Below are positions 2,653-24,563 of a DNA stretch of 43,189 bases, one piece after another. This DNA comes from a virus. The DNA lies in the IMG/VR virus record IMGVR_UViG_3300029174_000003, positions 1 to 43,189 of that record. One strand, given 5' to 3'. The notes beneath the pieces are model-generated. The model ran no database searches. It worked only from the letters and a program-made list of their open reading frames with translations, and had not been told where the DNA came from. Positions within the stretch are counted from its first letter, which is position 1, and the number at the start of each line of letters is the position of its first letter. The translations under genes and the position numbers were made by a program.

Positions 2653-2818
2653 ACCATTGAGAGATTCAAGACCTATGACAGAGCGACCAATAGCTATACA
2701 GTTAGAGGCTCAATTCTTTAAAACAATACAGCCATTATTAACTAAGAAGCAGCAAGGCAAAGTAATGGGTGCTTTTCGTGAAACACTTAAAAGCTTTATG
2801 GAGTCTACTAATGATTGA
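2642..2818 (+). CDS. Hypothetical small protein (58 aa)
   Basis: Not in the track (under 60 aa). ATG 2642 is preceded by GAGGTG. The frame stays open to TGA at 2816-2818 (MSFKPLRDSRPMTERPIAIQLEAQFF...SFMESTND). Confidence 0.5.
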   Translation: MSFKPLRDSRPMTERPIAIQLEAQFFKTIQPLLTKKQQGKVMGAFRETLKSFMESTND

Positions 2819-3293
2819 CTTTAGCAAAGAAGTGCTTGAGCTAACAAGAGGCAAGACGCCATTCAACCCGTCACGTAAAGCAACAGCTAGGGTCAGAAAT
2901 GTACTACCAATCCCTGTAGCATGTAACTTGTGCAGTGGACCTGTTGAAGTAATAACACATATTGAATTATACGGGCAGTTATATGGCGAGTGGCCATTTG
3001 CTTACAGATGTCAGGATTGTGGTGCTTATGTTGGCATGCATCCATTCACTAATATTCCATTAGGCACACTGGCAGATGCTGAGATTCGCGAGGCACGTAA
3101 GAAGTGCAAGCCTGCCTTTGATAAACTATGGAAGCATCGCCATGACTTTGACCGGTCATCAGCATATGAGTGGCTCGCTCATGAGATGGGTATACCAACA
3201 GAGCAATGCCACTTCGGTTGGTTCACAGCAGAACAATGCTACAAGGCTAAAGCTATATGTGAGAACGCCTGGTGGCTTGGGAGGAATAAATAA
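2811..3293 (+). CDS. Zinc-finger protein of the DUF3268-like phage family (160 aa)
   Basis: Start moved to ATG 2811, overlapping the previous stop. It has two Cys pairs (CNLCSG and CQDCGAYVGMHP), followed by LGTLADAEIREARKKCKPAFDKLW and EQCHFGWF. I recall this pattern from DUF3268-type proteins. Confidence 0.65.
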   Translation: MIDFSKEVLELTRGKTPFNPSRKATARVRNVLPIPVACNLCSGPVEVITHIELYGQLYGEWPFAYRCQDCGAYVGMHPFTNIPLGTLADAEIREARKKCKPAFDKLWKHRHDFDRSSAYEWLAHEMGIPTEQCHFGWFTAEQCYKAKAICENAWWLGRNK

Positions 3294-4480: not shown

Positions 4481-4981
4481 ATGTCTGGTATCAAAAAAGC
4501 GTTTCTGCCAATCGTCGAAGCATTGCGTGCTGCAATGGAAGCTGACCCGAAAGTTAAAGTAGCATCTGTCCTGGGTGACATCGAAGCACTGGCATCTGCC
4601 AAGTCTGGTGCAGGCGGCGGTAAAGCAACCACTTTCCATCGTGACGAAGCTGGCAACGTTGTTGCTGTCAAGTGTTACTACCACGGTCTGTGGATGGACC
4701 CGCGCGTCGCTGAGTTCGGCGAGAAGAAATCCAGCGCTTCAGGTTTCAATAGCATGTCTAAAGACGGCATGTCTAAGTGGACTAAGCAGAACGCGGCTGC
4801 TAAGAAAGCTAAAGAAGAACTGCTGCTCAAAGTTCAGTCTGGTGAAATCGCCGCTGACCAAATCGCCGACCAGCTGGCCGCTATCGATGCAGAGCGTTCT
4901 GCAGTGATTGCCCGTGAAGACGGTTATGGCTTCGCAACTCTGGAAGAGTGCCTGCAGGACTCCCAGAACCGCGGTCTGTAA
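4481..4981 (+). CDS. Abundantly expressed early/middle protein (166 aa), GC-rich paralog of the 490..960 product; family not recognised
   Basis: GAGGG SD. Codon usage is enterobacterial high-expression type (ctg, cgt, ggt, gaa, aaa, atc). The gene is flanked by a strong promoter and a strong terminator. Confidence 0.9.
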   Translation: MSGIKKAFLPIVEALRAAMEADPKVKVASVLGDIEALASAKSGAGGGKATTFHRDEAGNVVAVKCYYHGLWMDPRVAEFGEKKSSASGFNSMSKDGMSKWTKQNAAAKKAKEELLLKVQSGEIAADQIADQLAAIDAERSAVIAREDGYGFATLEECLQDSQNRGL

Positions 4982-6916: not shown

Positions 6917-9174
6917 AACCTTTCATCGATATGCAATGGCATACTGTACCGTTGCGCGGTGAGCTAGTTAGACTTGAAGATGGTAAGAAGTCTTTACCTA
7001 AGTTCGAGGAAAACTGGCGAGCTAAGTACCAGACTGAGTTTAATAAAACTGCCACTAAATTAGGTGGTACAATCACTGGAGAAGTGTCCGGTATTATTGC
7101 TATTGACTGTGATAATACGGAGACCTTCAAGTTGTTCCAGGCACTCGACCCTGACTATAAGTTCATCTTTGTCTCTCAAGGTAAGTTAGATAAAGATGGC
7201 AAGGAGAAAGACTGTGGAACTCTCATCTATAGGTATACAGATGCTATCGAAGATGGCTTTAGCATTAATGATGGTAGCATGGCTCTTGATGTATATTCAA
7301 ATCGTGGCTTCGTATACCTTCCTACCAGTGCGAATAAGACGAAAGTTGCGTGGAGCGATGATATCCCTGAGCTGCGCGAACTTCCTAATACTTCTCTCGT
7401 ATTACTTCAGCAATTAAAAAAGGCTGCGGATAATAAGCATGGAAGCTCAGCAACACCAGTTGTTATGAATATCATGACAGCTAACTGTTTAGCTCCGCTT
7501 GTTACTCAATATAATGCAGGCAATGGTAAGATGATGCCGGGCTTGTTCCGTATCATTACACCTAAGGACTTCCGGGACCTGCCAGGATACGTGAAAAATG
7601 GGTACCTACACCCTCAAGACGTGCCTGAAGGTCGCGGTAGTGAGTATCTTAGTAAAGTGTCTGCTATACTGGGTGCTGACATATCCATAGATGTTGATAC
7701 CTATACTGCGGCCATGCACAACATTAATGGCATGTTTGACGCACCAATGGATAAGCGCCGGTTAGACTCAACTATACTGGACCCAATGATAAGTGAGCGG
7801 GCCTCAGTCAATGGTGTGTCTATATGGAAGTATGATAAAGATTGGGAGAATTATCGTTTGGTTATGCCAACTAAGCGCCAGTCTAACATTGAGTTGTGCT
7901 TCGATGACTACCGTAATATTTATTATGCTGTTGATATGGCTAATGAACGCATGCGGTCTTTCCATCGTGATACTGACCTGATGTCGTACATCTCGGCTGC
8001 AGCAGTTAATCCACCTAAGAAGATGGACATCCTGAGGTCTATGCCTGTAGTCAACACACGTGTTGAACCTAACAGACCATTCGGGTTTAACCAGGGCGAC
8101 GACCCTACAGCCCGCACATTGAACACTTTCAGGCAGACACCAGAGTTAGCTATCATGTCTAGTCCTGAAGACTATGTTGGCTACTATAAGTTTCCATCTA
8201 CTACTCTTAAGTTCCTGGAGACACTAGTACCTGAGAAAGAGATGCGTGATTTCTTACTGGGATTCACTAAGCGTAAGCTAATGACTTTCGGTTATAGCCC
8301 GGTTATCCTGTACTTCTTGGGTGTTCATGGTTCTGGTAAAGATACATATGTCAAGATACTTGAAAAGATTATCGGCAATGTGTCTAGACCAACAACTAAA
8401 GAATTCCTTGATATGTTCAACGGTTATCTGTTGGACACATACTTTGTACAGCTTGATGAATATGGTAACCAGCTTACTCGTATCTCAGACCGTGAAGAAG
8501 CACTAGGTAAGCTAAAAGCATACACAGGTAAGCAGAACATTCAGATTCGCCAGATGCGAACTGATGGCTTCATGTATATGCACAATGCTACATTCATCAT
8601 GACAGCTAACAAAAACCCGCTGATGCTGGAAGATGGTGACCGTCGTGTGGCTCTGATGCCAACACCTAACGTGCTTAATGAAGTAGACTGGGTTACTGCA
8701 ATGGGTGGTCCTACAGTATTGCATGATAAGATACTGGATGAGACTAAAGACTTCGCGTATTATTTAGCTACAGAAGTTCCAATGCTGTCTGACCAGCTAT
8801 ATATGAAGCCACCTGAGTCTGCATCTAAACGTCGGTTGGTTGCTGACAGTATGTATGCTGCTCAACGTATTGCCTATGCCTTCAAACACGGCATGCATGA
8901 ATACTTGATTGAACTGTGTGAAGACTTCAACGTCACAGAAACACCTTCGGCAATCAAGCGTGGTCGTGTATATATTGAAGACCTGGAACCTTTGTACATG
9001 GCTTTAACTGAATTCAATGGAGATATGAAGTCCATGAATAAAGCTATGAGAAACAATGGCATCGACCTGATACCTAGTACTGTCAAAGGTAATAAGACGT
9101 ACTACTATCGTGTCGAATGGTTGACTGATAACGAAGAGGAGAAATGGGATGACATCTCAGGCGAGACGGATTAA
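6904..9174 (+). CDS. Bifunctional primase-polymerase / SF3 (D5-like) replicative helicase (756 aa)
   Basis: The N-terminal prim-pol signature is GGTITGEVSGIIAIDCDN. The C-terminal part has Walker A GVHGSGKDT and Walker B VQLDEYG. Confidence 0.85.
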   Translation: METIKPFIDMQWHTVPLRGELVRLEDGKKSLPKFEENWRAKYQTEFNKTATKLGGTITGEVSGIIAIDCDNTETFKLFQALDPDYKFIFVSQGKLDKDGKEKDCGTLIYRYTDAIEDGFSINDGSMALDVYSNRGFVYLPTSANKTKVAWSDDIPELRELPNTSLVLLQQLKKAADNKHGSSATPVVMNIMTANCLAPLVTQYNAGNGKMMPGLFRIITPKDFRDLPGYVKNGYLHPQDVPEGRGSEYLSKVSAILGADISIDVDTYTAAMHNINGMFDAPMDKRRLDSTILDPMISERASVNGVSIWKYDKDWENYRLVMPTKRQSNIELCFDDYRNIYYAVDMANERMRSFHRDTDLMSYISAAAVNPPKKMDILRSMPVVNTRVEPNRPFGFNQGDDPTARTLNTFRQTPELAIMSSPEDYVGYYKFPSTTLKFLETLVPEKEMRDFLLGFTKRKLMTFGYSPVILYFLGVHGSGKDTYVKILEKIIGNVSRPTTKEFLDMFNGYLLDTYFVQLDEYGNQLTRISDREEALGKLKAYTGKQNIQIRQMRTDGFMYMHNATFIMTANKNPLMLEDGDRRVALMPTPNVLNEVDWVTAMGGPTVLHDKILDETKDFAYYLATEVPMLSDQLYMKPPESASKRRLVADSMYAAQRIAYAFKHGMHEYLIELCEDFNVTETPSAIKRGRVYIEDLEPLYMALTEFNGDMKSMNKAMRNNGIDLIPSTVKGNKTYYYRVEWLTDNEEEKWDDISGETD

Positions 9175-9670
9175 TATAATTGTCGCTCGCAGCCTGAACA
9201 ATGTAATCGGTCTTGATGGCCGGTTACCTTGGAATGAGCCCGAGGATATGAAGTACTTCAAAGAACTAACTGAAGGCAGTACTGTAATAATGGGCCGCAG
9301 AACCTGGGAATCTTTACCAGGTGATGGGCCTTTACCTAACAGACGCAATATTGTTATTAGTTCACACAAAGGTCCGCACTTTGGAAAGCTACAAGCTCCA
9401 TGGCGGGTAGTACCACGCTTAGCTAAAGCCCTAGAAGTAGCACGTGGTACCACAATATTTATTATTGGTGGCGCACAACTATACGAAGAAGCTTTAAAGG
9501 TTGCTGATACTATGTATATTACAGTAGTTCGGCAGAAAGTACCGGAAGAAGGCGCAGTAATGTTTCCTGACTGGGACCCTAACCAATGGTCACTTGAGTA
9601 TAGCATTATGTCACCGTCACAAACTGTAATCTTTAAGAAGTATAACAGGAGGACTAATGGACGTTCTTAA
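9149..9670 (+). CDS. Dihydrofolate reductase (173 aa)
   Basis: IIVARSLNNVIGLDGRLPW...DMKYFKELTEGSTVIMGRRTWESLP...LPNRRNIVIS...IIGGAQLYEEAL is the classical DHFR pattern. Confidence 0.85.
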   Translation: MTSQARRINIIVARSLNNVIGLDGRLPWNEPEDMKYFKELTEGSTVIMGRRTWESLPGDGPLPNRRNIVISSHKGPHFGKLQAPWRVVPRLAKALEVARGTTIFIIGGAQLYEEALKVADTMYITVVRQKVPEEGAVMFPDWDPNQWSLEYSIMSPSQTVIFKKYNRRTNGRS

Positions 9671-11993: not shown

Positions 11994-12026
11994 ATAGCCC
12001 AAAACTAATCACATAGGAATACATAA

Positions 12027-12416
12027 ATGAACAAGAACAACGTAGCTATCGCAATGTTTGACAACGTAACTGCAGTGACCGTAACTTTCCCGGTGTCTGG
12101 TGGTAATTATACCTATATGTCGCTGGAAGCACTTGAAGTTGGCGACCTAGTGTTAGTTGACACACCTCGCGCAGGTCTGCAGGTTGTTGAAGTAACTAAA
12201 GTTGATGTTAGCTGGGATGTAGATGCTAAGTACGACTATAAGTTTATTGTTGGCAAAGTGGATATGGATAAGTATGCTAAAATCCAGGAAGCTGTTGCTG
12301 AAGTGCGTGAGACTATTGAAGCAGAACGTCGTAACCAGGCACGCAAAGCTATGGTAGAGCATCTAGGTCTTAAAGCTGCTACTGTTAGCAAGATTGCAAA
12401 ATTAACTAAGCTGTAA
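12027..12416 (+). CDS. Hypothetical protein (129 aa) preceding the DNA polymerase
   Basis: Track ORF with AGGA upstream. The N-terminal half looks beta-rich and the C-terminal part is a charged helix. No family recognised. Confidence 0.75.
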   Translation: MNKNNVAIAMFDNVTAVTVTFPVSGGNYTYMSLEALEVGDLVLVDTPRAGLQVVEVTKVDVSWDVDAKYDYKFIVGKVDMDKYAKIQEAVAEVRETIEAERRNQARKAMVEHLGLKAATVSKIAKLTKL

Positions 12417-12430
12417 ACCACCCGCGTCTT

Positions 12431-12457
12431 GGCCGCTCTTCGGAGCGGTCCTTTTTA
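12431..12457 (+). terminator. Rho-independent terminator
   Basis: ggccgctc ttcg gagcggtc, followed by cttttt. Confidence 0.85.
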
Positions 12458-12482
12458 CTTTGCGCTTGTCAACGGAGACATC

Positions 12483-14393
12483 ATGCAACGTACACCATTC
12501 AAAGCAATACTCAAAGATTTATCCCTTCCTGGCTTTGACCGTAATGAAGACTTGTTTGTCGATACCGAAACTATAGGGCTATATGGCAAGATTCGCCTGG
12601 CGCAGTTCTATCAGCGTGGTATGGACGAAGTTCTCATTGTTGAGTGGCCAGACCCGTATCAGTTAGCTGCGACCATGGACCAGTTCAATAATGTGGCGCA
12701 CAACGTTCACTATGAAATTACAGTTGTTCAACAGAACTCTGTAACACGCTGGTGTCCTGAGCGCATGGAAGACACTTTCCTACTAGCTCGTCTGGCTATG
12801 CCGCATCGTGAGTCTTTCTCATTAGATGATGTTATGGACTACTGCCTTGGCTATGACCCATATGCTAAGCAACGTCTTAAGAAAGCAGAGCTGCAAAAAT
12901 CTGACTGGGGTGCACCTATATTAAGTGACGACCAGTATGTCTATGCTGCAACTGACGTGTATTATCTGCCGGCGGTATATGACAAAGTAGTAAAAGCTAA
13001 AGACATGTTTAGCTACAAACTGGACATGCTCACTCTTCGCTACTGCGTAGACTTCCAGTGGAATGGCATGCCAATCGATAAAGAGCGGCTGTTCCTGGAG
13101 TGGGAGACTATTGAAGCCTTCCTAGCAAAAACAAAATGTCCGGTCAATGTGAACTCACCTAAACAAGTCAAGGAATGGCTTGGTGTGGATTCATCTGCGG
13201 ACCTTGAATTGGCTTATATCGAGCTTGACCCGACTAAGAACAAACTTTGTTACTGGGGTGTAAGTGAAGGTGTGCCACAGAACGAAGCAGCAGGTCTGGT
13301 ACGTAAGATTCGCAAGGCACGTAAGAAGTTAAGTTTCTTAGCTAAGTATGAAGAAACTGCGGTTGATGGTCTTATCTACGGTAAGTTTAAACCTTCAGCT
13401 CGCTCAGGCCGTTTAACATCTGACGACCAGAACCAACAGCAGCACCCTCGTTCTCTTAAACATATCTTTGGCTTTGAGAAAGATGGTAGTAAGATTATGG
13501 TGTACGCTGACTATGCTCAGATTGAACTGCGCCATATCTGTGCCATTGTAGAATGTAAGCTAATGGAGCAGCTGTTCCGTGAAGGTAAAGACTTACACAC
13601 CTTTACTGCTGACATGATATTCGGTAGCTTTGATAGTTTGTTTGAACCAGCATTTGAAGCAGCAGTTAAAACGCACTGTGAACGTAATGAACACGGTTTA
13701 ATTTCAGATGAAGATTATGCTCGCATAAAAGAAGGTGTTGAGCATGAGATTAAAGCTATATACAAGCGTAACCGTCAGATTAGTAAGACTTGTAACTTTA
13801 GCTTGTTGTATGGCGGCGGCATTCCAATGTTTATCTCTATATTGGTTAAGACTACTAACATCTGGTTGTCTGAGCCTGACGCCAACCGCGCACGAGCTAA
13901 GTGGCGTAACCTGTGGAAAGAGATTTACGCCTGGCAGGAACGCGGCATAGCGCAATGGCGTAAAGGTAAGCTTGGCTCTACTCCTCTTGGCCGTCAGTAT
14001 TCTGCTAAGATGATGACAGACCAGCTGAACATTGAAAACCAAGGCGGTGCAGCTGACGTTAATAAGTTAGCTATGCATTATCTTGTACCTAAACTGCGGG
14101 CATACAATGCTGAACATGGTACTACATATTGTATAGCTAATAACATACACGATAGCTTTATCTTGACAGGTGAAAATATACCAGAACATTATAAAGCTGT
14201 GGCACGTATCTTAGCTGAAGAAATGCAGCGTGCCTGGTTTGAGTGCTCCAAGAACTTACGTATCACTGACTTGCCTATGCCAGTTGATGTGAAATGCGGG
14301 TTTAACTGGGGTGATATTGAAAACGATGATATTGAGAATGCGTATGACTTCTCACTGGAACCATATGCAATGCTGGAGGCTGTAAATGCATAA
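12483..14393 (+). CDS. Family-A DNA polymerase with 3'-5' exonuclease domain (636 aa)
   Basis: Track ORF 12429..14393 would run through the terminator, so I trimmed it to ATG 12483 (GGAG upstream). Exo I is DTETIGLY, motif A is YADYAQIELRHI, motif B is RQISKTCNFSLLYGGG and motif C is NIHDSF. Confidence 0.9.
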   Translation: MQRTPFKAILKDLSLPGFDRNEDLFVDTETIGLYGKIRLAQFYQRGMDEVLIVEWPDPYQLAATMDQFNNVAHNVHYEITVVQQNSVTRWCPERMEDTFLLARLAMPHRESFSLDDVMDYCLGYDPYAKQRLKKAELQKSDWGAPILSDDQYVYAATDVYYLPAVYDKVVKAKDMFSYKLDMLTLRYCVDFQWNGMPIDKERLFLEWETIEAFLAKTKCPVNVNSPKQVKEWLGVDSSADLELAYIELDPTKNKLCYWGVSEGVPQNEAAGLVRKIRKARKKLSFLAKYEETAVDGLIYGKFKPSARSGRLTSDDQNQQQHPRSLKHIFGFEKDGSKIMVYADYAQIELRHICAIVECKLMEQLFREGKDLHTFTADMIFGSFDSLFEPAFEAAVKTHCERNEHGLISDEDYARIKEGVEHEIKAIYKRNRQISKTCNFSLLYGGGIPMFISILVKTTNIWLSEPDANRARAKWRNLWKEIYAWQERGIAQWRKGKLGSTPLGRQYSAKMMTDQLNIENQGGAADVNKLAMHYLVPKLRAYNAEHGTTYCIANNIHDSFILTGENIPEHYKAVARILAEEMQRAWFECSKNLRITDLPMPVDVKCGFNWGDIENDDIENAYDFSLEPYAMLEAVNA

Positions 14394-15186
14394 ATTTGAA
14401 CGCGATTACATTAGTCTTGTTACTAAAGTACTTCAACGTGGTGAGCGCAGACAAACACGCAACGGTGGCACCAGGTCATTATTTGCACAACAACTAGTTG
14501 TTGATATGTCTGATGGCTTATACTTCCCGTTACTTGTAGGTCGCCAGATGTTTTACAAAGGCGTGTTTGGCGAACTGGCAGCCATTCTTCGTGGTCCACA
14601 GACTATTGAAGACTTTAAGAAATGGGGTTGTAACTACTGGGATAAGTGGGCAAAACCTGACGGCAATTTAAATGTTGACTACGGCAATGCCTGGCATGAA
14701 GGTAGACAGTTTGAACATCTGAAAGAATGTTTAGCCAATAATCCTACAGACCGTCGTATGATTATTAATGGCTGGCGGCCAGAGCATTTGCCACATCTTG
14801 ACTTACCGTGCTGCCATTATGCATATCAGTTCTATGTGACGTCAGACCGTCGCCTGCACATGATGTGGCATCAGCGTAGTGTGGATGTCATGGTTGGATT
14901 ACCATCTGACGTGGTGTTTGCTGCAGCATGGCTTATTATGATAGCTAATGAGTTCAATCTGCATCCTGGTGTTATCACCATGACACTTGGCGATACCCAT
15001 ATCTACGAAGGCCACGTTGAAGGAGCTTACATTTATTTAAGACAAGCTAAGCAACATTTAGGTGATTCACCAGTATATAACTTAGCTGCTGAATCCGGCA
15101 AAGACTTTTTAACATTTGAGCCAACTGATATTGCTATCAGTAAATATAACCCAATGCCTAAAATAGGATTTGAACTATATGAATGA
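14386..15186 (+). CDS. Thymidylate-synthase-family (ThyA-like) pyrimidine C5-methylase/hydroxymethylase with Asp at the Asn177-equivalent position (266 aa)
   Basis: Conserved TS blocks: TRNGGTRSLF, YWDKWA, DYGNAW, DRRMIINGW, LPCCHYAYQFYV (catalytic Cys143), QRSVDVMVGLPSD and GDTHIY. E. coli ThyA has RSCDVFLGLPFN in the equivalent block, so Asn177 is replaced by Asp175 (GAC, 14908-14910). Confidence 0.85.
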   Translation: MHKFERDYISLVTKVLQRGERRQTRNGGTRSLFAQQLVVDMSDGLYFPLLVGRQMFYKGVFGELAAILRGPQTIEDFKKWGCNYWDKWAKPDGNLNVDYGNAWHEGRQFEHLKECLANNPTDRRMIINGWRPEHLPHLDLPCCHYAYQFYVTSDRRLHMMWHQRSVDVMVGLPSDVVFAAAWLIMIANEFNLHPGVITMTLGDTHIYEGHVEGAYIYLRQAKQHLGDSPVYNLAAESGKDFLTFEPTDIAISKYNPMPKIGFELYE

Positions 15187-15751
15187 CTTAACTGACGTTT
15201 ACATCCGTGTAGCAGCGTGGAACAGACAACGTTATGACCAGGTGTATAACCAGAACCTGGCAGTTGCTCTTCTGCGCGAAGAGTACAATGAATGGCGTAC
15301 AGACACAATCCCGGTTAAAAAGCTGGATGGTCTGTGTGATGTGGTATATGTAGCACTGGGCGTAGTATGGAAAGCTAATATTGACCCGGTAATGTTAGGC
15401 ATTGCGCAACAACGTAGTATGGCAACTACAGATGCGATTGTTAACGCATTTGAGTTGAACCCTGGTTACTTCATTAATTCTATCATCGATGTGCTTGAAA
15501 CAGAAGAAGACTACCCAGTAGAGCAAGCGATGATGAATATTATTGCATTAGCTACAGCTCAGGCATTAAGTATGGGTTTAACTTACGACCAATTCATTGA
15601 AGCATTATTAGTTGTATGTGACTCTAATGACAGTAAGTCTGTTAAGCGGGTTGCAGCAGACGTCAAAGCGAACGCCGGTGATAAAGGTAGTTTATTTGTA
15701 GCACCTGAACCACGGTTATCAGCAATCTTAGAGCAAACTAATAAGTTCTAG
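15170..15751 (+). CDS. All-alpha MazG/HisE-like nucleoside triphosphate pyrophosphohydrolase (193 aa)
   Basis: LLREEYNEW...DGLCDVVYVALG is the EExxE...D metal-binding helix pattern of MazG-like NTP-PPases. The gene overlaps the ThyA-like stop. An alternative start is ATG 15179. Confidence 0.65.
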   Translation: MNYMNDLTDVYIRVAAWNRQRYDQVYNQNLAVALLREEYNEWRTDTIPVKKLDGLCDVVYVALGVVWKANIDPVMLGIAQQRSMATTDAIVNAFELNPGYFINSIIDVLETEEDYPVEQAMMNIIALATAQALSMGLTYDQFIEALLVVCDSNDSKSVKRVAADVKANAGDKGSLFVAPEPRLSAILEQTNKF

Positions 15752-15756
15752 CAACA

Positions 15757-15785
15757 AGCCCGGATTATTTTGTCCGGGCTATTTA
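15757..15785 (+). terminator. Rho-independent terminator (moderate U-tract)
   Basis: agcccgga (15757-15764) pairs with tccgggct (15773-15780), followed by attt. Confidence 0.65.
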
Positions 15786-15815
15786 CATTATCATTATTCT
15801 ATGTATAATTATAAT
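15782..15815 (+). promoter_or_regulatory. Sigma70-type promoter (TTTACA 15782-15787, 16 bp, TATAAT 15804-15809; second TATAAT at 15810-15815)
   Basis: Read directly. The ATG at 15801 used by the ORF track lies inside this promoter. Confidence 0.6.
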
Positions 15816-15842
15816 GTAAATAACAACGTGAGATTGAAGCAA

Positions 15843-16436
15843 ATGACAAACAAAGAGATTATTAGCTATGTATTCAGCGAAGCAGCTAAGTCAAATATTG
15901 AAAAACGTAAAGTTGGTTGCGTAGTAGTTGACGGCAACAATGAAGTCATAGCTAAAGGCTACAACAGAAAGGGCTTTGATAATGCACCTGATGTGCATGC
16001 TGAAAAAGCCGCACTAGCTATGCTTACAGCAACTCCTGTAGGGCCTTGCACAGTCTACGTATCTCAGCCGCCTTGTCCAAACTGTGCTGAATACATCATG
16101 AAACGCTTAGGTTCAACTGTTAAGATTGAAGTTGTTAAAGAGTTCATGAAGTTTGACGGCGACAAATTGAGGTATGACCTGGTGCCACCTTCAGCTATCA
16201 AAGCTATGGCTGACGTATTGACTTTTGGTGCACGTAAGTATAAACCTAACAATTGGAAAGAGTGTGAAGAGCCAGAGCGTTACTTAGCTGCTCTGTACCG
16301 CCACCTGGAATTATGGCGTACAGGTGAAGTTAATGACCAAGACTCAGGCTTCCATCATTTAGCTCATGCTATGACAAACCTGGCATTCATGTTAGAGCTT
16401 AATTATAACCCAACAGAGTGGAGTAAAGAAGAATGA
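15843..16436 (+). CDS. Fusion protein: zinc cytidine/dCMP deaminase domain plus DUF5664 (dGTP_diPhyd_N-like) domain (197 aa)
   Basis: The N-terminal half has VHAEKAAL...PPCPNCAEYI (the HAE/PCxxC zinc site). The C-terminal half is DKLRYDLVPPSAIKAMADVLTFGARKYKPNNW...YLAALYRHLELW...GFHHLAHAMTNLAFMLEL. This matches the pattern I recall for the N-terminal domain of phage dATP/dGTP diphosphohydrolases. Confidence 0.75.
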   Translation: MTNKEIISYVFSEAAKSNIEKRKVGCVVVDGNNEVIAKGYNRKGFDNAPDVHAEKAALAMLTATPVGPCTVYVSQPPCPNCAEYIMKRLGSTVKIEVVKEFMKFDGDKLRYDLVPPSAIKAMADVLTFGARKYKPNNWKECEEPERYLAALYRHLELWRTGEVNDQDSGFHHLAHAMTNLAFMLELNYNPTEWSKEE

Positions 16437-16855
16437 ATCAAGTACCAATTGTAGTTGACTACTTCAGACTAGAAGCTGACTTTCAGCACTTCCTGGCTTA
16501 TTCAAATTATGGTGAGCTAACTGAAGAAGAGACTACTCGTTTGCGTAATGCTTATATGCACGGTGGTGACTACGATTCTGTATCACAGTTTGGTTATGAC
16601 CTTGCTGTGCGTGCTTTAAAGAATGGTCATAAAGTAGCACGTGAAGGTTGGAAGGGTAAAAATATGTTCTTGTTCCTTGTAAAAGAGCGTTCTAGCCGTG
16701 CTTATGAGTTTCCATTAAATACTATGGTAGAAGCAGGTGCTATTGTTAAACGTCGGGCTTACATTGCAATGCGAACAGCTGATGGTGAAGTAGTTCCATG
16801 GCATGCTACTCAATCTGATATGTTGGAACAAGACTGGTTCATCTTACAAAGCTGA
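16433..16855 (+). CDS. DUF2829 (Tad2-like) domain protein with a roughly 55-aa N-terminal extension (140 aa)
   Basis: ATGA coupling to the upstream gene. LAVRALKNGHKVAREGWKGKNMFLFL...RAYIAMRTADGEVVPWHATQSDMLEQDWFIL matches the DUF2829 signature (GW.GK, Y I.M.T..G...PW..SQ.D.L..DW). Confidence 0.75.
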   Translation: MNQVPIVVDYFRLEADFQHFLAYSNYGELTEEETTRLRNAYMHGGDYDSVSQFGYDLAVRALKNGHKVAREGWKGKNMFLFLVKERSSRAYEFPLNTMVEAGAIVKRRAYIAMRTADGEVVPWHATQSDMLEQDWFILQS

Positions 16856-16893
16856 AATCGGTCAGACGGTTGAGGCCAGTTTCAATTTAAATC

Positions 16894-16927
16894 AATCCGG
16901 CTTATATTTGTATAGGCCGGATTTTTT
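16894..16927 (+). terminator. Rho-independent terminator
   Basis: aatccggc (16894-16901) pairs with gccggatt (16916-16923), running into tttttt. Confidence 0.85.
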
Positions 16928-16976
16928 AACATTAAAACGACAGCAAAATTATTTAATTACTGTTTTCATTTTTCTG

Positions 16977-17005
16977 TGTACATAATTTAATAAATATATT
17001 AAAAT
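16977..17005 (+). promoter_or_regulatory. Sigma70-type promoter (TGTACA 16977-16982, 17 bp, TAAAAT 17000-17005)
   Basis: Read directly. It precedes the small ORF at 17036. Confidence 0.5.
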
Positions 17006-22011: not shown

Positions 22012-22044
22012 AAAGAAGGCCCTCACATAGAGGGCCTTATATTT
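22012..22044. terminator. Bidirectional rho-independent terminator between convergent blocks
   Basis: A 9-bp stem: aaggccctc (22016-22024) pairs with gagggcctt (22030-22038). T-runs flank it on both strands. Confidence 0.8.
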
Positions 22045-24478
22045 AGAAGGTGATAACTAAACCATCTAGCGAGATCTGCGTAGATGCAGGGTTGTTATGA
22101 ACAGCTACTGTACCATCCGTGTTAACCACAGTAGGAATACTGCCAGTGTTACCCCACTGAATAAAGTAGCGTGGGGTAGTCGCTGGACGAATACCTTCAG
22201 GAATAGTAAATATAGTGCCAGTAAGCGCAGCTGCCGCTTCTAACTTACCACGTAATTCTACACCTTCCTTAGTATAACGATACTGAGCTGTACCTGTTAC
22301 TCCTGCGGAGAATGTCGTGAATGACACCCAGTCAGTCGGTGATTTTACCACCGGACAAAGCTGAGCAGCAATACCACGGGCAATCTCATAGCCATACATG
22401 CGATATGCATATGCAGTAGGATGCATGTTATCACGGAGTATAGCATCTGCAAAGGTAGAGCTAAGATAACCAGGGTCTACGGGGCCCGTAAACGCTGTCA
22501 TATCAATTAACTGTAAACCAACATCTGCGGCAGTACGACCTATAGCTGCACGGATGTCACCACCTTTACTAGAGTTAGTAGTAGAACCACCACCGCCGCC
22601 TGCTGTATCAGTTTTCAGATACCACTGCGGAGGTATAACTAATACTACTGCACGGCCTTGAGACTTAAGCGTGTTTATCAAGTTAGTTAATGATGTCTGG
22701 AAGGCAGACAAAGAGTTGCCACCTTGGATATCATTAGTACCAATAAACACAGCTACAACCGAAGCATTAACAAACGGATTAGAAGCTAAGTTAGCAATCT
22801 GTTGGTCCAAGGTCTGACCTGAGATAGCTCTGTTTTCAACTGTGTTAATGCGTATGCCCAATGAACCGTCCAGAGCTTCTGCAGCCCAGATAGGCCATGC
22901 GCCGTGGACAGAACCATCAGAGATACTGTCACCAATGATGCCGAGCGTCTGAGAACGTACACCCACTGCAACCCGGAATGACTGCTTAAACCAGCCAGTA
23001 AAGTTTGCACCGCTAGTCGCCGAGATACTGGTAGAACCAACACCCATCCATTGAATAGCACCAGATGTAAGTTGGAAGTCCACTACAGTTACACCGTTAA
23101 CCATAAACTGTGCACGAATAGGACTAATACTACGAACAGTCAACAAGTTGTTACCTGCAGAATAAGTCGCAATATTAACTGGAGCAACCACGCCTTGTGT
23201 AGTAGAAGGTTGTCCAATATACTTAACGGTCAAAGACCAAGCTGTGGAACCAGGTTGACCACGTAGCACAGCGTAACCAGTATTAGCTATAATACCTACA
23301 GCGATTTCACCACCATTATCCGGGATGTTATTCACGCCAACCTTTAGCTCTGTACCAGGGATAGCCTGAATAACACCGAGCTGTGTGTTGCCGCCAGACG
23401 GAGGCTGCAAGAACAAAGAACTTGCTGAACGACCAGCAGGACTAACAGTAGTTACAGTGTCACCTACACCCAGTGTAAACTGTTTAACAGGGATAGCACT
23501 GGCCATAACAGCTAACGGTTGATTATCAGGGATATCTAAAGTATTAAGCCATAAAGACTTATTAGCTCCCTTACTACCAATGTGATAGTTAGCACGAATA
23601 TCAACGTAGTAATCTTTAGGGTCGCCACCGTTAAAGTACACTCTGTAGTCATTGTCTGTTACAATGCTGGACACTGCCATGCCTGGAGTAGCAGGGCCGA
23701 TAATTGTAACACCGTTATCTGGTCTTACAACAATACCTGAGAAGTCAGGAAAGCCAGTAGGGAAGTTGTAGTTACCAGTGCTATTTCTAGGCAAGTAAAC
23801 AGAACCGCCAAGACCCGCAGCAGCCTTAGCTAAGTTAAAGGCAGCAAGGTTATCCAGTACAGACTCACCACCACCGAAGTCAGTAATCTTAACTTCTGTC
23901 GCTAGGCGAGCACCAACAGTAGTCTGGCGGAACCCGGACAAATAAGAGCCAGTGCTCAGACTTAAGTCATTGCGCAGACTTGCATCGCCTTTATTTACCC
24001 ATGCACCAGGACCAATACCGCCTGTAGATGCAGGAGTAGAGCCTGCAGGTACTACCTTAGGCAGTACGCCTTCCCACTGGTAATAGTCACCAGATGATTC
24101 TAGCAATAACACATCATTAGCATACGTGAGAGTATTACCAGCTTCAAATGAAACTAAGCGGTTGTAAGACGATGGGTCAGCATTGCCCAGCCTTATAACT
24201 TCCCATACACCAATGCCATCATAAGAACTAATGCCTGTAGCACCAGCTCTGGTAGTGTACTGATAGTAAGTTGTAAGTAAGTCTTTAACCACGACGCCAA
24301 GGGTGAACTTACTTGGGTCTAAGTTAGCTAATGCATTCTCAGTTGACACTGGCACAAACAAGTGCAGTCTATGGATGTCGACAACTGTGCCAGCACGGTT
24401 TTGCTGAGTTGTACCTACACCTATTGACATGTCTTCCATACCAGCTAAGCTTTTAGTAACTACTTTAGTATCTGCCAT
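22043..24478 (-). CDS. Tailspike/tail fibre with an embedded SGNH (GDSL) esterase domain (811 aa)
   Basis: The track start is TTG 24508. The ATG at 24478 has GGAG 7 nt upstream. SGNH block I is IIGDSISDGS, block III is VFIGTNDIQGG and block V is DNMHPT. Confidence 0.85.
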   Translation of the reverse strand: MADTKVVTKSLAGMEDMSIGVGTTQQNRAGTVVDIHRLHLFVPVSTENALANLDPSKFTLGVVVKDLLTTYYQYTTRAGATGISSYDGIGVWEVIRLGNADPSSYNRLVSFEAGNTLTYANDVLLLESSGDYYQWEGVLPKVVPAGSTPASTGGIGPGAWVNKGDASLRNDLSLSTGSYLSGFRQTTVGARLATEVKITDFGGGESVLDNLAAFNLAKAAAGLGGSVYLPRNSTGNYNFPTGFPDFSGIVVRPDNGVTIIGPATPGMAVSSIVTDNDYRVYFNGGDPKDYYVDIRANYHIGSKGANKSLWLNTLDIPDNQPLAVMASAIPVKQFTLGVGDTVTTVSPAGRSASSLFLQPPSGGNTQLGVIQAIPGTELKVGVNNIPDNGGEIAVGIIANTGYAVLRGQPGSTAWSLTVKYIGQPSTTQGVVAPVNIATYSAGNNLLTVRSISPIRAQFMVNGVTVVDFQLTSGAIQWMGVGSTSISATSGANFTGWFKQSFRVAVGVRSQTLGIIGDSISDGSVHGAWPIWAAEALDGSLGIRINTVENRAISGQTLDQQIANLASNPFVNASVVAVFIGTNDIQGGNSLSAFQTSLTNLINTLKSQGRAVVLVIPPQWYLKTDTAGGGGGSTTNSSKGGDIRAAIGRTAADVGLQLIDMTAFTGPVDPGYLSSTFADAILRDNMHPTAYAYRMYGYEIARGIAAQLCPVVKSPTDWVSFTTFSAGVTGTAQYRYTKEGVELRGKLEAAAALTGTIFTIPEGIRPATTPRYFIQWGNTGSIPTVVNTDGTVAVHNNPASTQISLDGLVITF

Positions 24479-24479
24479 T

Positions 24480-24563
24480 CTACGCTCCAATAATTTTGTA
24501 ACAGTCAATGATGTATAGGCCTAATAAGAGACCAACTAATAAACCGTATTTGAAGTTGCTCAT
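24480..24563 (-). CDS. Possible micro-ORF encoding a 27-aa hydrophobic peptide
   Basis: ATGA overlap with the upstream stop. Its TAG lies 1 nt before the tailspike ATG. Translation is MSNFKYGLLVGLLLGLYIIDCYKIIGA. The only evidence is the coupling geometry. Confidence 0.25.
   Translation of the reverse strand: MSNFKYGLLVGLLLGLYIIDCYKIIGA

Follow-up and report, generated by a model that had tools for sequence, protein, structure and literature searches.

Which pyrimidine nucleotide is used by the only thymidylate synthase (TS) homolog of a phage when the residue that decides between dUMP and dCMP has been replaced, and what would this mean for the bases of the phage DNA? The question is raised by IMG/VR record IMGVR_UViG_3300029174_000003, which was analyzed over its whole length (43,189 nucleotides, positions 1 to 43,189; hereafter the window). 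A sequence-only reading of the window had noticed that the ThyA-family enzyme encoded at 14386..15186 carries Asp in place of a key Asn and had predicted a dCMP methylase and cytosine-modified DNA. Our analysis indicates that the gene is likely to encode a folate-dependent dCMP C5-methyltransferase (5-methyl-dCMP, or 5mdCMP, synthase) derived from a TS scaffold and forming the core of a pyrimidine-rewiring module, with 5-methylcytosine (5mC) predicted to replace most or all of the cytosine of the virion DNA.

The genome is complete and circularly permuted (~43 kb, ~43% GC) and belongs to a Kafunavirus-like podophage. No nucleotide match was obtained by megablast of positions 12000-17000 of the window against 50,697 phage records, indicating that no closely related isolate has been sequenced and that kinship is visible at the protein level only. 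The relatives detected at that level are Edwardsiella phage KF-1 (genus Kafunavirus), Dickeya phage Amaethon, Vibrio phage VPMS1, Pseudoalteromonas phage PH1 and, more distantly, Pelagibacter phage Kolga. The TS homolog is 60% identical to its KF-1 counterpart.

The TS homolog retains the ThyA scaffold

The gene and the three codons on which the argument turns are the following.

14386..15186, + strand: ThyA-family enzyme in which Asp replaces Asn177, predicted dCMP C5-methyltransferase (5mdCMP synthase); Pfam, PHROG, AlphaFold2, Foldseek and residue map
14803..14805, + strand: Leu140 codon TTA (E. coli Leu143), bulky hydrophobic residue retained; alignments, rule from PMC13326640 and PMC6400193
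14812..14814, + strand: Cys143 codon TGC, catalytic nucleophile (E. coli Cys146); codon read directly and alignments
14908..14910, + strand: Asp175 codon GAC (E. coli Asn177), residue deciding the pyrimidine substrate; codon read directly, HMMER and MAFFT alignments

The open reading frame (ORF) encodes 266 residues, of which residues 7-263 match positions 2-263 of the 266 positions of the Pfam profile PF00303 (Thymidylat_synt; E = 3.3e-60, 203.9 bits for a cut-off of 24.3). The protein also matches PHROG 160 (7e-73). The AlphaFold2 model has a pLDDT of 94.6, and the top 50 matches of this model found by Foldseek in the PDB were all canonical TS aligned over the full chain (TM 0.86-0.92); the dCMP hydroxymethylase of T4 (dCH, gp42) was not among these 50 matches. 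Among the NCBIfam models of TS, TIGR03284 was passed (144.5 bits for a cut-off of 108.35). The scores for the other seven were under the cut-off, far under it for the six equivalog models derived from PRK (e.g. 166.8 versus 327).

The catalytic motifs listed in the sequence-only reading were all recovered, namely LPCCH (residues 140-144), DRRM (122), DYG (98), QRSVD (163) and GDTH (202), to which LPSD (172-175) is added. The nucleophile is the second Cys of LPCCH and is followed by His144, the equivalent of E. coli His147, both residues being invariant in the alignment of homologs. The equivalents of R21, E58, W80, W83, Y94, R126/R127, C146, H147, R166, S167, D169, H207 and Y209 are retained, and the nucleophilic Cys and the Arg residues that bind phosphate (R21, R126', R127', and R166) are thus conserved on a TS fold. 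Canonical ThyA (E. coli, Mycobacterium tuberculosis, and human) provided the best match both in sequence (31-32% identity) and in structure (TM 0.88-0.92). Every catalytic and folate-closing element of these enzymes is kept, including Leu143, Trp80, Trp83, Tyr94, His147, and the C-terminal tail. In contrast to canonical ThyA, the phage protein harbors four substitutions that are found clade-wide, Asn177 to Asp and, co-varying with it, Phe176 to Ser, Ile79 to Tyr, and Val93 to Asp.

Aspartate occupies the substrate-specificity position

The residue at position 177 selects the substrate of the enzymes of the family, Asn directing them to dUMP and Asp to dCMP (PMC8670742; PMC6400193). The substitutions N177D in E. 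coli and N229D in Lactobacillus casei turn TS to the methylation of dCMP (cited in PMC8670742). Furthermore, Asp177 ranks first among the residues associated with cytosine-modified metavirome contigs (PMC8670742). Alignment by HMMER with TS of solved structure paired 'qrsvdvmvglpsdv' of the phage protein without gap with 'QRSADIFLGVPFNI'. In three MAFFT alignments including E. coli ThyA, T4 gp42, and gp59 of phage Xp12, the corresponding column contained Asn in the E. coli enzyme and Asp in T4 gp42, Xp12 gp59, and the query. The gap-free pairing and the concordant column together establish Asp175 as the equivalent of Asn177, as the sequence-only reading had proposed from an ungapped alignment.

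Asp was present at this position in 120 of the 120 closest database homologs. An identical TS homolog is encoded by independent assemblies (Logan SRR4039769, 43,120 bp, and JGI 3300029179, 43,193 bp). Asp175 is therefore neither an assembly error nor a chance variant. The Asn that characterizes canonical ThyA (EC 2.1.1.45) and reads O4 and N3-H of dUMP is absent from the phage enzyme, which has the Asp characteristic of dCMP methyltransferases of the Xp12 gp59 type. The conservation of this Asp and the published link between Asp177 and modified contigs (PMC8670742) support the prediction that dCMP would be the substrate.

Residues that separate methylation from hydroxymethylation

The TS fold, the catalytic Cys, the Asp at the specificity position, and the (predicted) use of dCMP are shared with T4 gp42. 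Other residues discriminate between the two products. Hydroxymethylases and hydroxylases carry Asp or Glu at position 143 (PMC13326640; PMC6400193). T4 gp42 has Asp145, Val85, and a Thr at the positions at which the phage enzyme keeps Leu, Trp, and His, Asp145 and Val85 replacing Leu143 and Trp83, and is without the C-terminal tail by which the active site is sealed (PMC6400193; PMC13326640). In the T4 enzyme, Asp145 activates the water molecule that attacks the methylene intermediate (PMC6400193). The combination 'N177D plus L143D/E' is taken by the Weigele group to mark enzymes with products other than methyl, including the new flavin-dependent 5-hydroxy-dCMP synthases (PMC13326640).

Three features of the T4-type hydroxymethylases (an acidic residue at 143, the absence of the tail, and Val at 83) are missing from the phage enzyme. 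Leu is present at position 143, as in all 120 closest homologs and in 146 of 150 representatives of the family, Trp88 is retained at the position of Trp83, and the C-terminal tail has exactly the length of that of E. coli ThyA. A non-acidic residue at 143 and a retained tail define a sealed site permitting hydride transfer. Asp at 177 combined with Leu143, Trp80, Trp83, Tyr94, His147, and the tail identifies a dCMP methylase according to the published residue rules. The preference of the sequence-only reading for a methyl over a hydroxymethyl product, which it had based on other arguments, is thus reinforced by residues that it had not used, and a 5-methyl product is predicted.

Two other assignments were considered. 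A flavin-dependent 5-hydroxy-dCMP synthase of the RB69 gp48 or DLP3 gp80 type was rejected since this activity requires Glu at 143, the position occupied by Leu in the phage enzyme (PMC13326640). The label 'Pyrimidine hmase' of the relative MW202665 was given no weight. That protein also has Leu at 143, and the label probably echoes the name of the CDD superfamily TS_Pyrimidine_HMase cited for the VPMS1 ortholog.

The genes surrounding the TS homolog

The TS homolog is flanked by the genes of a putative module and is accompanied by a more distant gene encoding a dihydrofolate reductase (DHFR).

9149..9670, + strand: DHFR; Pfam DHFR_1 3.5e-43, PHROG 316 1e-43
12483..14393, + strand: family A DNA polymerase with 3'-5' exonuclease, 636 aa; Pfam DNA_pol_A 4.7e-31, DNA_pol_A_exo1 1e-10
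15179..15751, + strand: MazG/PRA-PH-like all-alpha NTP pyrophosphohydrolase, 190 aa; PHROG 671 9e-12 and orthologs
15801..16436, + strand: CDA-fold zinc deaminase (residues ~19-110, HAE...PCPNC) with a PF18909 domain (117-205), 211 aa; Pfam and PDB deaminase matches

The polymerase gene (polA) is the first gene of an overlapping polA-TS-pyrophosphatase unit. Its stop codon overlaps the TS start codon in ATGCATAA (14386-14393), and the synteny of polA and TS is kept in all the relatives that were examined. The family A polymerase would have to accept a modified dNTP. The pyrophosphatase gene starts at ATG 15179, its start codon and that of the TS stop overlapping in ATGAATGA, in accordance with the translationally coupled MazG-like gene described in the sequence-only reading. 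The pyrophosphatase of the window had no significant match in Pfam (only a chance-level match to NNH6, E = 0.066) or among PDB sequences. Its identification is based on PHROG 671 and on orthologs matching PRA-PH, since PF01503 was matched by the proteins of KF-1 (49% identical), VPMS1, Amaethon, and Kolga, as well as by Xp12 gp60 and PaMx74 gp53. A motif resembling a metal-binding site (EEYNE...DGLCD) was read from the translation. In each of the ten genomes of the clade that were examined, this gene follows that of the Asp-type TS. The enzyme may hydrolyze dCTP into dCMP and pyrophosphate, thereby feeding the TS homolog and keeping dCTP from the phage DNA. In phage Kolga, the PRA-PH pyrophosphatase (gp34, 4e-9) is located downstream of the Asp-type TS, and the gene directly upstream (gp36, L010 3544-3996) encodes a protein that matches DUF1599, 'nucleotide modification associated domain 1', below the threshold (E = 4e-4, 21.0 bits for a cut-off of 25).

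The gene list of the sequence-only reading was correct as far as it went. It had overlooked the deaminase at 15801-16436, which belongs to the known module. The Pfam matches of this protein were dCMP_cyt_deam_1 (1.1e-15), MafB19-deam (2.7e-12), and dGTP_diPhyd_N (PF18909, 4.3e-31), and an alternative start at ATG 15843 is possible according to the 197-aa gene call of the JGI. The fusion of the deaminase to PF18909 is common to KF-1 and Amaethon (58-65% identical) and to PH1. The deaminase probably turns part of the pool of 5-methyl-dC (5mdC) nucleotides into thymidine nucleotides, which would explain the lack of a second TS. PF18909 is normally located N-terminal to dATP/dGTP pyrophosphohydrolases of the DUF550/PF04447 type. 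In the clade member designated L016, the domain stands alone, without deaminase, and the Amaethon pyrophosphatase ortholog displays a faint match to PF04447. Judging from these domain arrangements, the deaminase might dock onto the neighboring pyrophosphatase through its PF18909 domain. The product of the next gene (16433-16855, + strand), which overlaps the deaminase stop codon, is 140 aa long and contains a Tad2-like (Thoeris anti-defence 2) domain (Pfam 9e-22). This protein would add to the adjacent DNA-modification module a second anti-defence function, independent of the first.

The DHFR gene, which the sequence-only reading had already located, lies ~5 kb upstream of the TS unit, between genes encoding a primase-helicase and a Dda-like helicase. 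The reductase is predicted to recycle the dihydrofolate produced by a reductive methyl transfer. Hydroxymethylases release tetrahydrofolate (THF) and need no DHFR (PMC5175136; PMC6400193). The position of the DHFR gene in the genome differs between two lineages of the clade, represented by the phage of the window and by L016, and this suggests repeated recruitment alongside the Asp-type TS. Since hydroxymethylases have no use for DHFR, such a recruitment supports the argument for methyl transfer drawn from DHFR in the sequence-only reading, as does the location of DHFR beside the Asp-type TS in phages of the Xp12 type.

Several functions were searched for and not found. The tblastn searches with the sequences of ThyA, T4 gp42, Xp12 TS, and a ThyX, completed by a scan for the ThyX motif, revealed no second ThyA-family gene and no ThyX, and the TS homolog is therefore the only TS-family gene of the complete genome. 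Pfam scans were applied to all real-looking ORFs of at least 90 aa, and PHROG scans to the five module genes and to ten early ORFs without annotation, including eight without a Pfam match. These scans detected no deoxynucleoside monophosphate (dNMP) kinase, glycosyltransferase, DNA methyltransferase, or TET/JBP enzyme, many small ORFs remaining without annotation. The sequence-only reading had likewise seen no second TS, no dNMP kinase, and no glucosyltransferase. T4 encodes, in addition to gp42, a separate TS (td), a dNMP kinase (gp1), a dCTPase (gp56), and glucosyltransferases. At most a possible analogue of the dCTPase was found in the window.

Comparison with Xp12 and with modified metavirome contigs

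In phage Xp12, all the cytosine is replaced by 5mC, and expression of its TS homolog in E. coli gave 5mdC (bioRxiv 10.1101/2024.12.05.627091). The relevant Xp12 genes form a cluster encoding a PRA-PH hydrolase (gp60), an Asp-type TS (gp59), a deaminase (gp58), and a DHFR (gp57). The same cluster is present in AXL1 and PaMx74, and DLP4 and Bosa also share the module. In the 5mC phages of the Xp12 type, DHFR always adjoins the Asp-type TS (PMC9206674). The four functions (a pyrophosphatase of the PRA-PH type, an Asp-type TS, a CDA-fold deaminase, and DHFR) are common to the Xp12 module and to the window. Moreover, both phages encode a single TS-family protein and a family A DNA polymerase among their replication genes, and in both TS homologs, position 177 is Asp, position 143 is not acidic, and Glu is the last residue of the C-terminal tail.

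The two systems also differ in several respects. Xp12 gp59 has Pro rather than His at 147, Phe rather than Trp at 83, and an insertion of 20-50 residues. The gene order is pyrophosphatase-TS-deaminase-DHFR in Xp12 and DHFR...polA-TS-pyrophosphatase-deaminase in the window, where the deaminase carries the additional PF18909 domain. Finally, Xp12 is a siphophage with a genome of 64 kb and 67% GC, unlike the 43-kb podophage with ~43% GC considered here.

Phages related to Xp12 share further proteins with the window. AXL1, a close relative of Xp12 that putatively contains 5mC, encodes a DUF3268 protein (gp71) beside its DNA polymerase, and a DUF3268 zinc-finger protein is encoded at 2769-3293 (+ strand) of the window (Pfam 2.8e-33). 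Accessory replication proteins common to both phage groups include a Gp2.5-like single-stranded DNA-binding protein (PaMx74 gp67), a PD-(D/E)XK/Cas4-like nuclease (AXL1 gp79), and a primase-polymerase (AXL1 gp83).

A closer counterpart to the gene arrangement was found in the contigs identified as modified by MetaGPA (Yang et al. 2021 eLife; 2024 mSCD preprint). As in the window, DNA_pol_A_exo1/DNA_pol_A, Asp177 TS, PRA-PH, and dCMP_cyt_deam_1/MafB19-deam are present within 3 kb. Deaminase genes of modified contigs were located within 3 kb of a TS gene in 70% of the cases (PMC8670742; bioRxiv 10.1101/2024.12.05.627091). The top domains co-localized with these deaminases were Thymidylat_synt, MafB19-deam, PRA-PH, DNA_pol_A, and DNA_pol_A_exo1 (bioRxiv 10.1101/2024.12.05.627091). 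This list is less well suited to the Xp12 type, since the AXL1 polymerase gene is more than 5 kb from the deaminase gene. Because the domain list fits the window better than Xp12, we infer that phages with the polA-TS-pyrophosphatase-deaminase architecture were among the modified contigs. In the same work, 5mdC was produced in E. coli by five of seven Asp-type TS homologs originating from modified contigs, in addition to Xp12 TS, and one partner deaminase (mSCD type) was selective for 5mdCTP, leading the authors to propose that it supplies dTTP and renders a second TS dispensable (bioRxiv 10.1101/2024.12.05.627091). The predicted product, 5mdCMP, and the predicted role of the deaminase, production of dTTP from 5mdCTP, are common to these systems and to the window.

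Survey of position 177 in the TS family

The residue at position 177 was surveyed in the 150 nearest of 1.84 billion cluster representatives, which comprised 81 Asp-type and 69 Asn-type enzymes. Both Tyr or Phe at 79 and Ser or Ala at 176 were present in 62 of the 81 Asp-type representatives, and neither change was detected in 59 of the 69 Asn-type representatives (typically Ile79 and Phe176), these counts being confounded by shared ancestry. Positions 79 and 176 contact the para-aminobenzoic acid (PABA) ring of folate in E. coli TS (PMC6400193). In the phage enzyme, the residues that travel with Asp177 are Tyr84 (Ile79), Ser174 (Phe176), and Asp98 (Val93), the last of which is invariant in the close clade.

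In a rough neighbor-joining (NJ) tree, the query belonged to a clade of 55 leaves comprising 50 Asp-type and five nested Asn-type enzymes, with Xp12 and PaMx74 outside. A Fitch count gave ~11 changes between Asp and Asn. The tree and the count are crude and were used only to establish that Xp12 falls outside the query clade and that Asn variants are nested within it. One of these Asn177 revertants (P0129, locus L017 6001-7583, JGI 3300056621) is 43% identical to the TS homolog of the window and is nested in the Asp clade. The order polA-TS-x-deaminase is kept at this locus, the pyrophosphatase slot being occupied by a gene for a 252-aa kinase-like protein with a P-loop (VVGETGHGKD) and a terminal TKPTVAPKA repeat. 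The P-loop start of this protein is reminiscent of the T4 gp1 dNMP kinase. Gene context thus tracks residue 177, the pyrophosphatase being present with Asp in the ten genomes and absent from the one Asn revertant that was inspected.

Proposed pathway and alternative explanations

In the pathway that we propose, the pyrophosphatase (15179-15751) would hydrolyze dCTP to dCMP, keeping dCTP out of DNA and feeding the next enzyme. Cys143 of the TS homolog would then attack C6 of dCMP, while Asp175 would read and protonate the cytosine at N3 and at its 4-amino group. The methylene of methylene-THF (CH2-THF) would be moved to C5, and the folate hydride would reduce the intermediate, yielding 5mdCMP and dihydrofolate. 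Reduction by hydride rather than attack by water is expected because the active site stays sealed by Leu140, Trp88, and a tail of TS length. This catalytic step is deduced from the conserved residues and from the behavior of characterized relatives. The phage DHFR (9149-9670) would regenerate THF, and host kinases, or an unrecognized phage kinase, would convert 5mdCMP to 5mdCTP for incorporation by the family A polymerase, so that 5mC would take the place of most or all cytosine. The deaminase fusion (15801-16436) would convert part of the 5mdC pool to thymidine nucleotides, and no dUMP-specific TS would be needed.

Several observations weigh against this pathway. The TS homolog is only 27-31% identical to the validated Xp12 gp59 and belongs to a separate NJ clade, so that residues and context, rather than close homology, connect it to Xp12. 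The rule for position 143 is soft, since the validated Xp12 enzyme has Asn or Val at or near this position, depending on the alignment. In VPMS1 and L016, both members of the clade, no deaminase occupies the corresponding slot, and the regions inspected in several relatives revealed no DHFR, indicating that neither looks like a core component. The DHFR argument would also be weakened if the enzymology of Xp12 published in 1978 is correct, since the hydrogen at C6 of folate was reportedly not transferred. The lack of a dNMP kinase in the Pfam and PHROG scans is a further difficulty, as the in vivo assay of the preprint involved co-expression of T4 gp1, and two of the seven Asp-type TS homologs tested gave no 5mdC (bioRxiv 10.1101/2024.12.05.627091). 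For KF-1, IW-1, ETP-1, Amaethon, VPMS1, and PH1, the searchable literature contained no biochemical or DNA-composition report, and no report of restriction resistance or modified bases was found there for KF-1, ETP-1, Amaethon, VPMS1, and PH1. Finally, the clade-invariant Asp98 is located at the position of E. coli Val93, where a polar residue could favor water chemistry, the equivalent Ser94 holding the catalytic water in T4 dCH (PMC6400193).

Asp98 brings into consideration the possibility that the enzyme is a dCMP hydroxymethylase, in which water rather than hydride captures the exocyclic methylene, leading to 5hmdCMP and to DNA containing 5-hydroxymethylcytosine. Besides Asp98, this possibility is favored by the Asp shared with T4 gp42 at 177, by the two homologs that gave no 5mdC, and by the fact that deaminases of the mSCD type also act on 5hmdCTP. 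We nevertheless regard it as unlikely, since the three signatures of T4 dCH are missing and the identity to T4 gp42 (20%) is lower than that to E. coli ThyA (31%). In addition, no glycosyltransferase or other hydroxyl-using enzyme was detected in the Pfam and PHROG scans, the partner deaminase would yield 5hmdUTP, which is not a canonical nucleotide, and DHFR would have no role beside an enzyme releasing THF (PMC5175136).

Two further explanations leave the virion DNA with canonical cytosine. According to one of them, the protein is an ordinary TS, or a TS of dual specificity, that mainly converts dUMP, provided by the neighboring dCMP deaminase, into dTMP. In T4, the classical cd-td-frd set comprises dCMP deaminase, TS, and DHFR, and the combination in the window can be read as this textbook set for the synthesis of dTMP. 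The canonical enzymes are the closest by sequence and by structure, the TIGR03284 cut-off is passed, and the Asn177 variants nested in the clade indicate that the scaffold can serve dUMP. This reading appears highly improbable in view of the strict conservation of Asp in the 120 homologs, of the scores far under the cut-offs of the six PRK-derived models, and of the different gene that occupies the pyrophosphatase slot of the Asn revertant. It is also difficult to reconcile with the change in substrate conferred by N177D and N229D (cited in PMC8670742), with the association of Asp177 with modified contigs, and with the production of 5mdC in vivo by deaminase-adjacent Asp-type TS homologs.

The other explanation, which we consider the least probable of all, is that 5mdCMP is only an intermediate on a route from dCMP to dTMP, the MazG-like enzyme removing 5mdCTP. 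The mammalian MazG-like enzyme DCTPP1 hydrolyzes 5-methyl-dCTP, which is in keeping with this role. The deaminase is adjacent, the scans revealed no dNMP kinase for 5mdCMP, and labeled cytosine ends in thymine in Xp12 (cited in bioRxiv 10.1101/2024.12.05.627091). However, VPMS1 and L016 keep the pair formed by the Asp-type TS and the pyrophosphatase without a deaminase at its slot, and 5mdCMP would be a dead end in these phages. Furthermore, Asp177 TS genes are enriched on contigs whose own DNA carries modified cytosine (PMC8670742), and the only characterized partner deaminase acts on triphosphates, implying the existence of a 5mdCTP pool.

Other genes of the window

Two paralogous early genes (430-960 and 4481-4981, both on the + strand) match PHROG 10459, of which the function is not known (1e-61 and 7e-65, respectively). 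On the - strand, positions 22043-24508 encode a tail spike that contains Tail_spike_N and an esterase domain of the GDSL/SGNH type (Pfam 3.9e-19 and 2.6e-17). Such a domain composition suggests a receptor-modifying enzyme of the deacetylase type rather than a glycanase.

Discussion

The Asn-to-Asp switch has been known since 1992, the methylation of dCMP in Xp12 since the 1970s, and the association with modified metavirome contigs since 2021 and 2024. The sequence-only reading had overrated the novelty of the locus in this respect, the architecture having already been described and partly validated by experiment. What may be new is the assignment of the pathway to the Kafunavirus-like group, the residue pattern specific to the clade, and the fusion of the deaminase to PF18909.

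A broader view, which is possible although we hold it to be doubtful as a whole, is that the Kafunavirus-like Asp-type enzymes represent a second lineage of dCMP methylases that arose from canonical TS independently of Xp12. This lineage would have a remodeled site for folate and water, in which Ile79, Phe176, and Val93 are replaced by Tyr, by Ser or Ala, and by Asp, respectively, and would function in a coupled complex in which PF18909 docks the deaminase on the pyrophosphatase. A single enzyme would then supply both 5mC and thymine, and the repeated switches between Asp and Asn within the clade would act as natural toggles that turn the modification of the DNA on or off.

If the proposed pathway is correct, a group of podophages with genomes of ~42 kb would have 5mC replacing cytosine. 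The group would cover cultured phages of Edwardsiella, Dickeya, Vibrio, and Pseudoalteromonas and many metagenomic relatives, some of the cultured phages being considered for biocontrol in aquaculture or crops. DNA of this type would be resistant to many restriction enzymes and sensitive to systems of the McrBC and Mrr types, with consequences for host range, and would display altered behavior in sequencing and cloning. The deaminases would become candidates for use in methylome sequencing as enzymes selective for methylation. More generally, phage annotations combining thymidylate synthase, dCMP deaminase, and DHFR can conceal a cytosine-replacement pathway.

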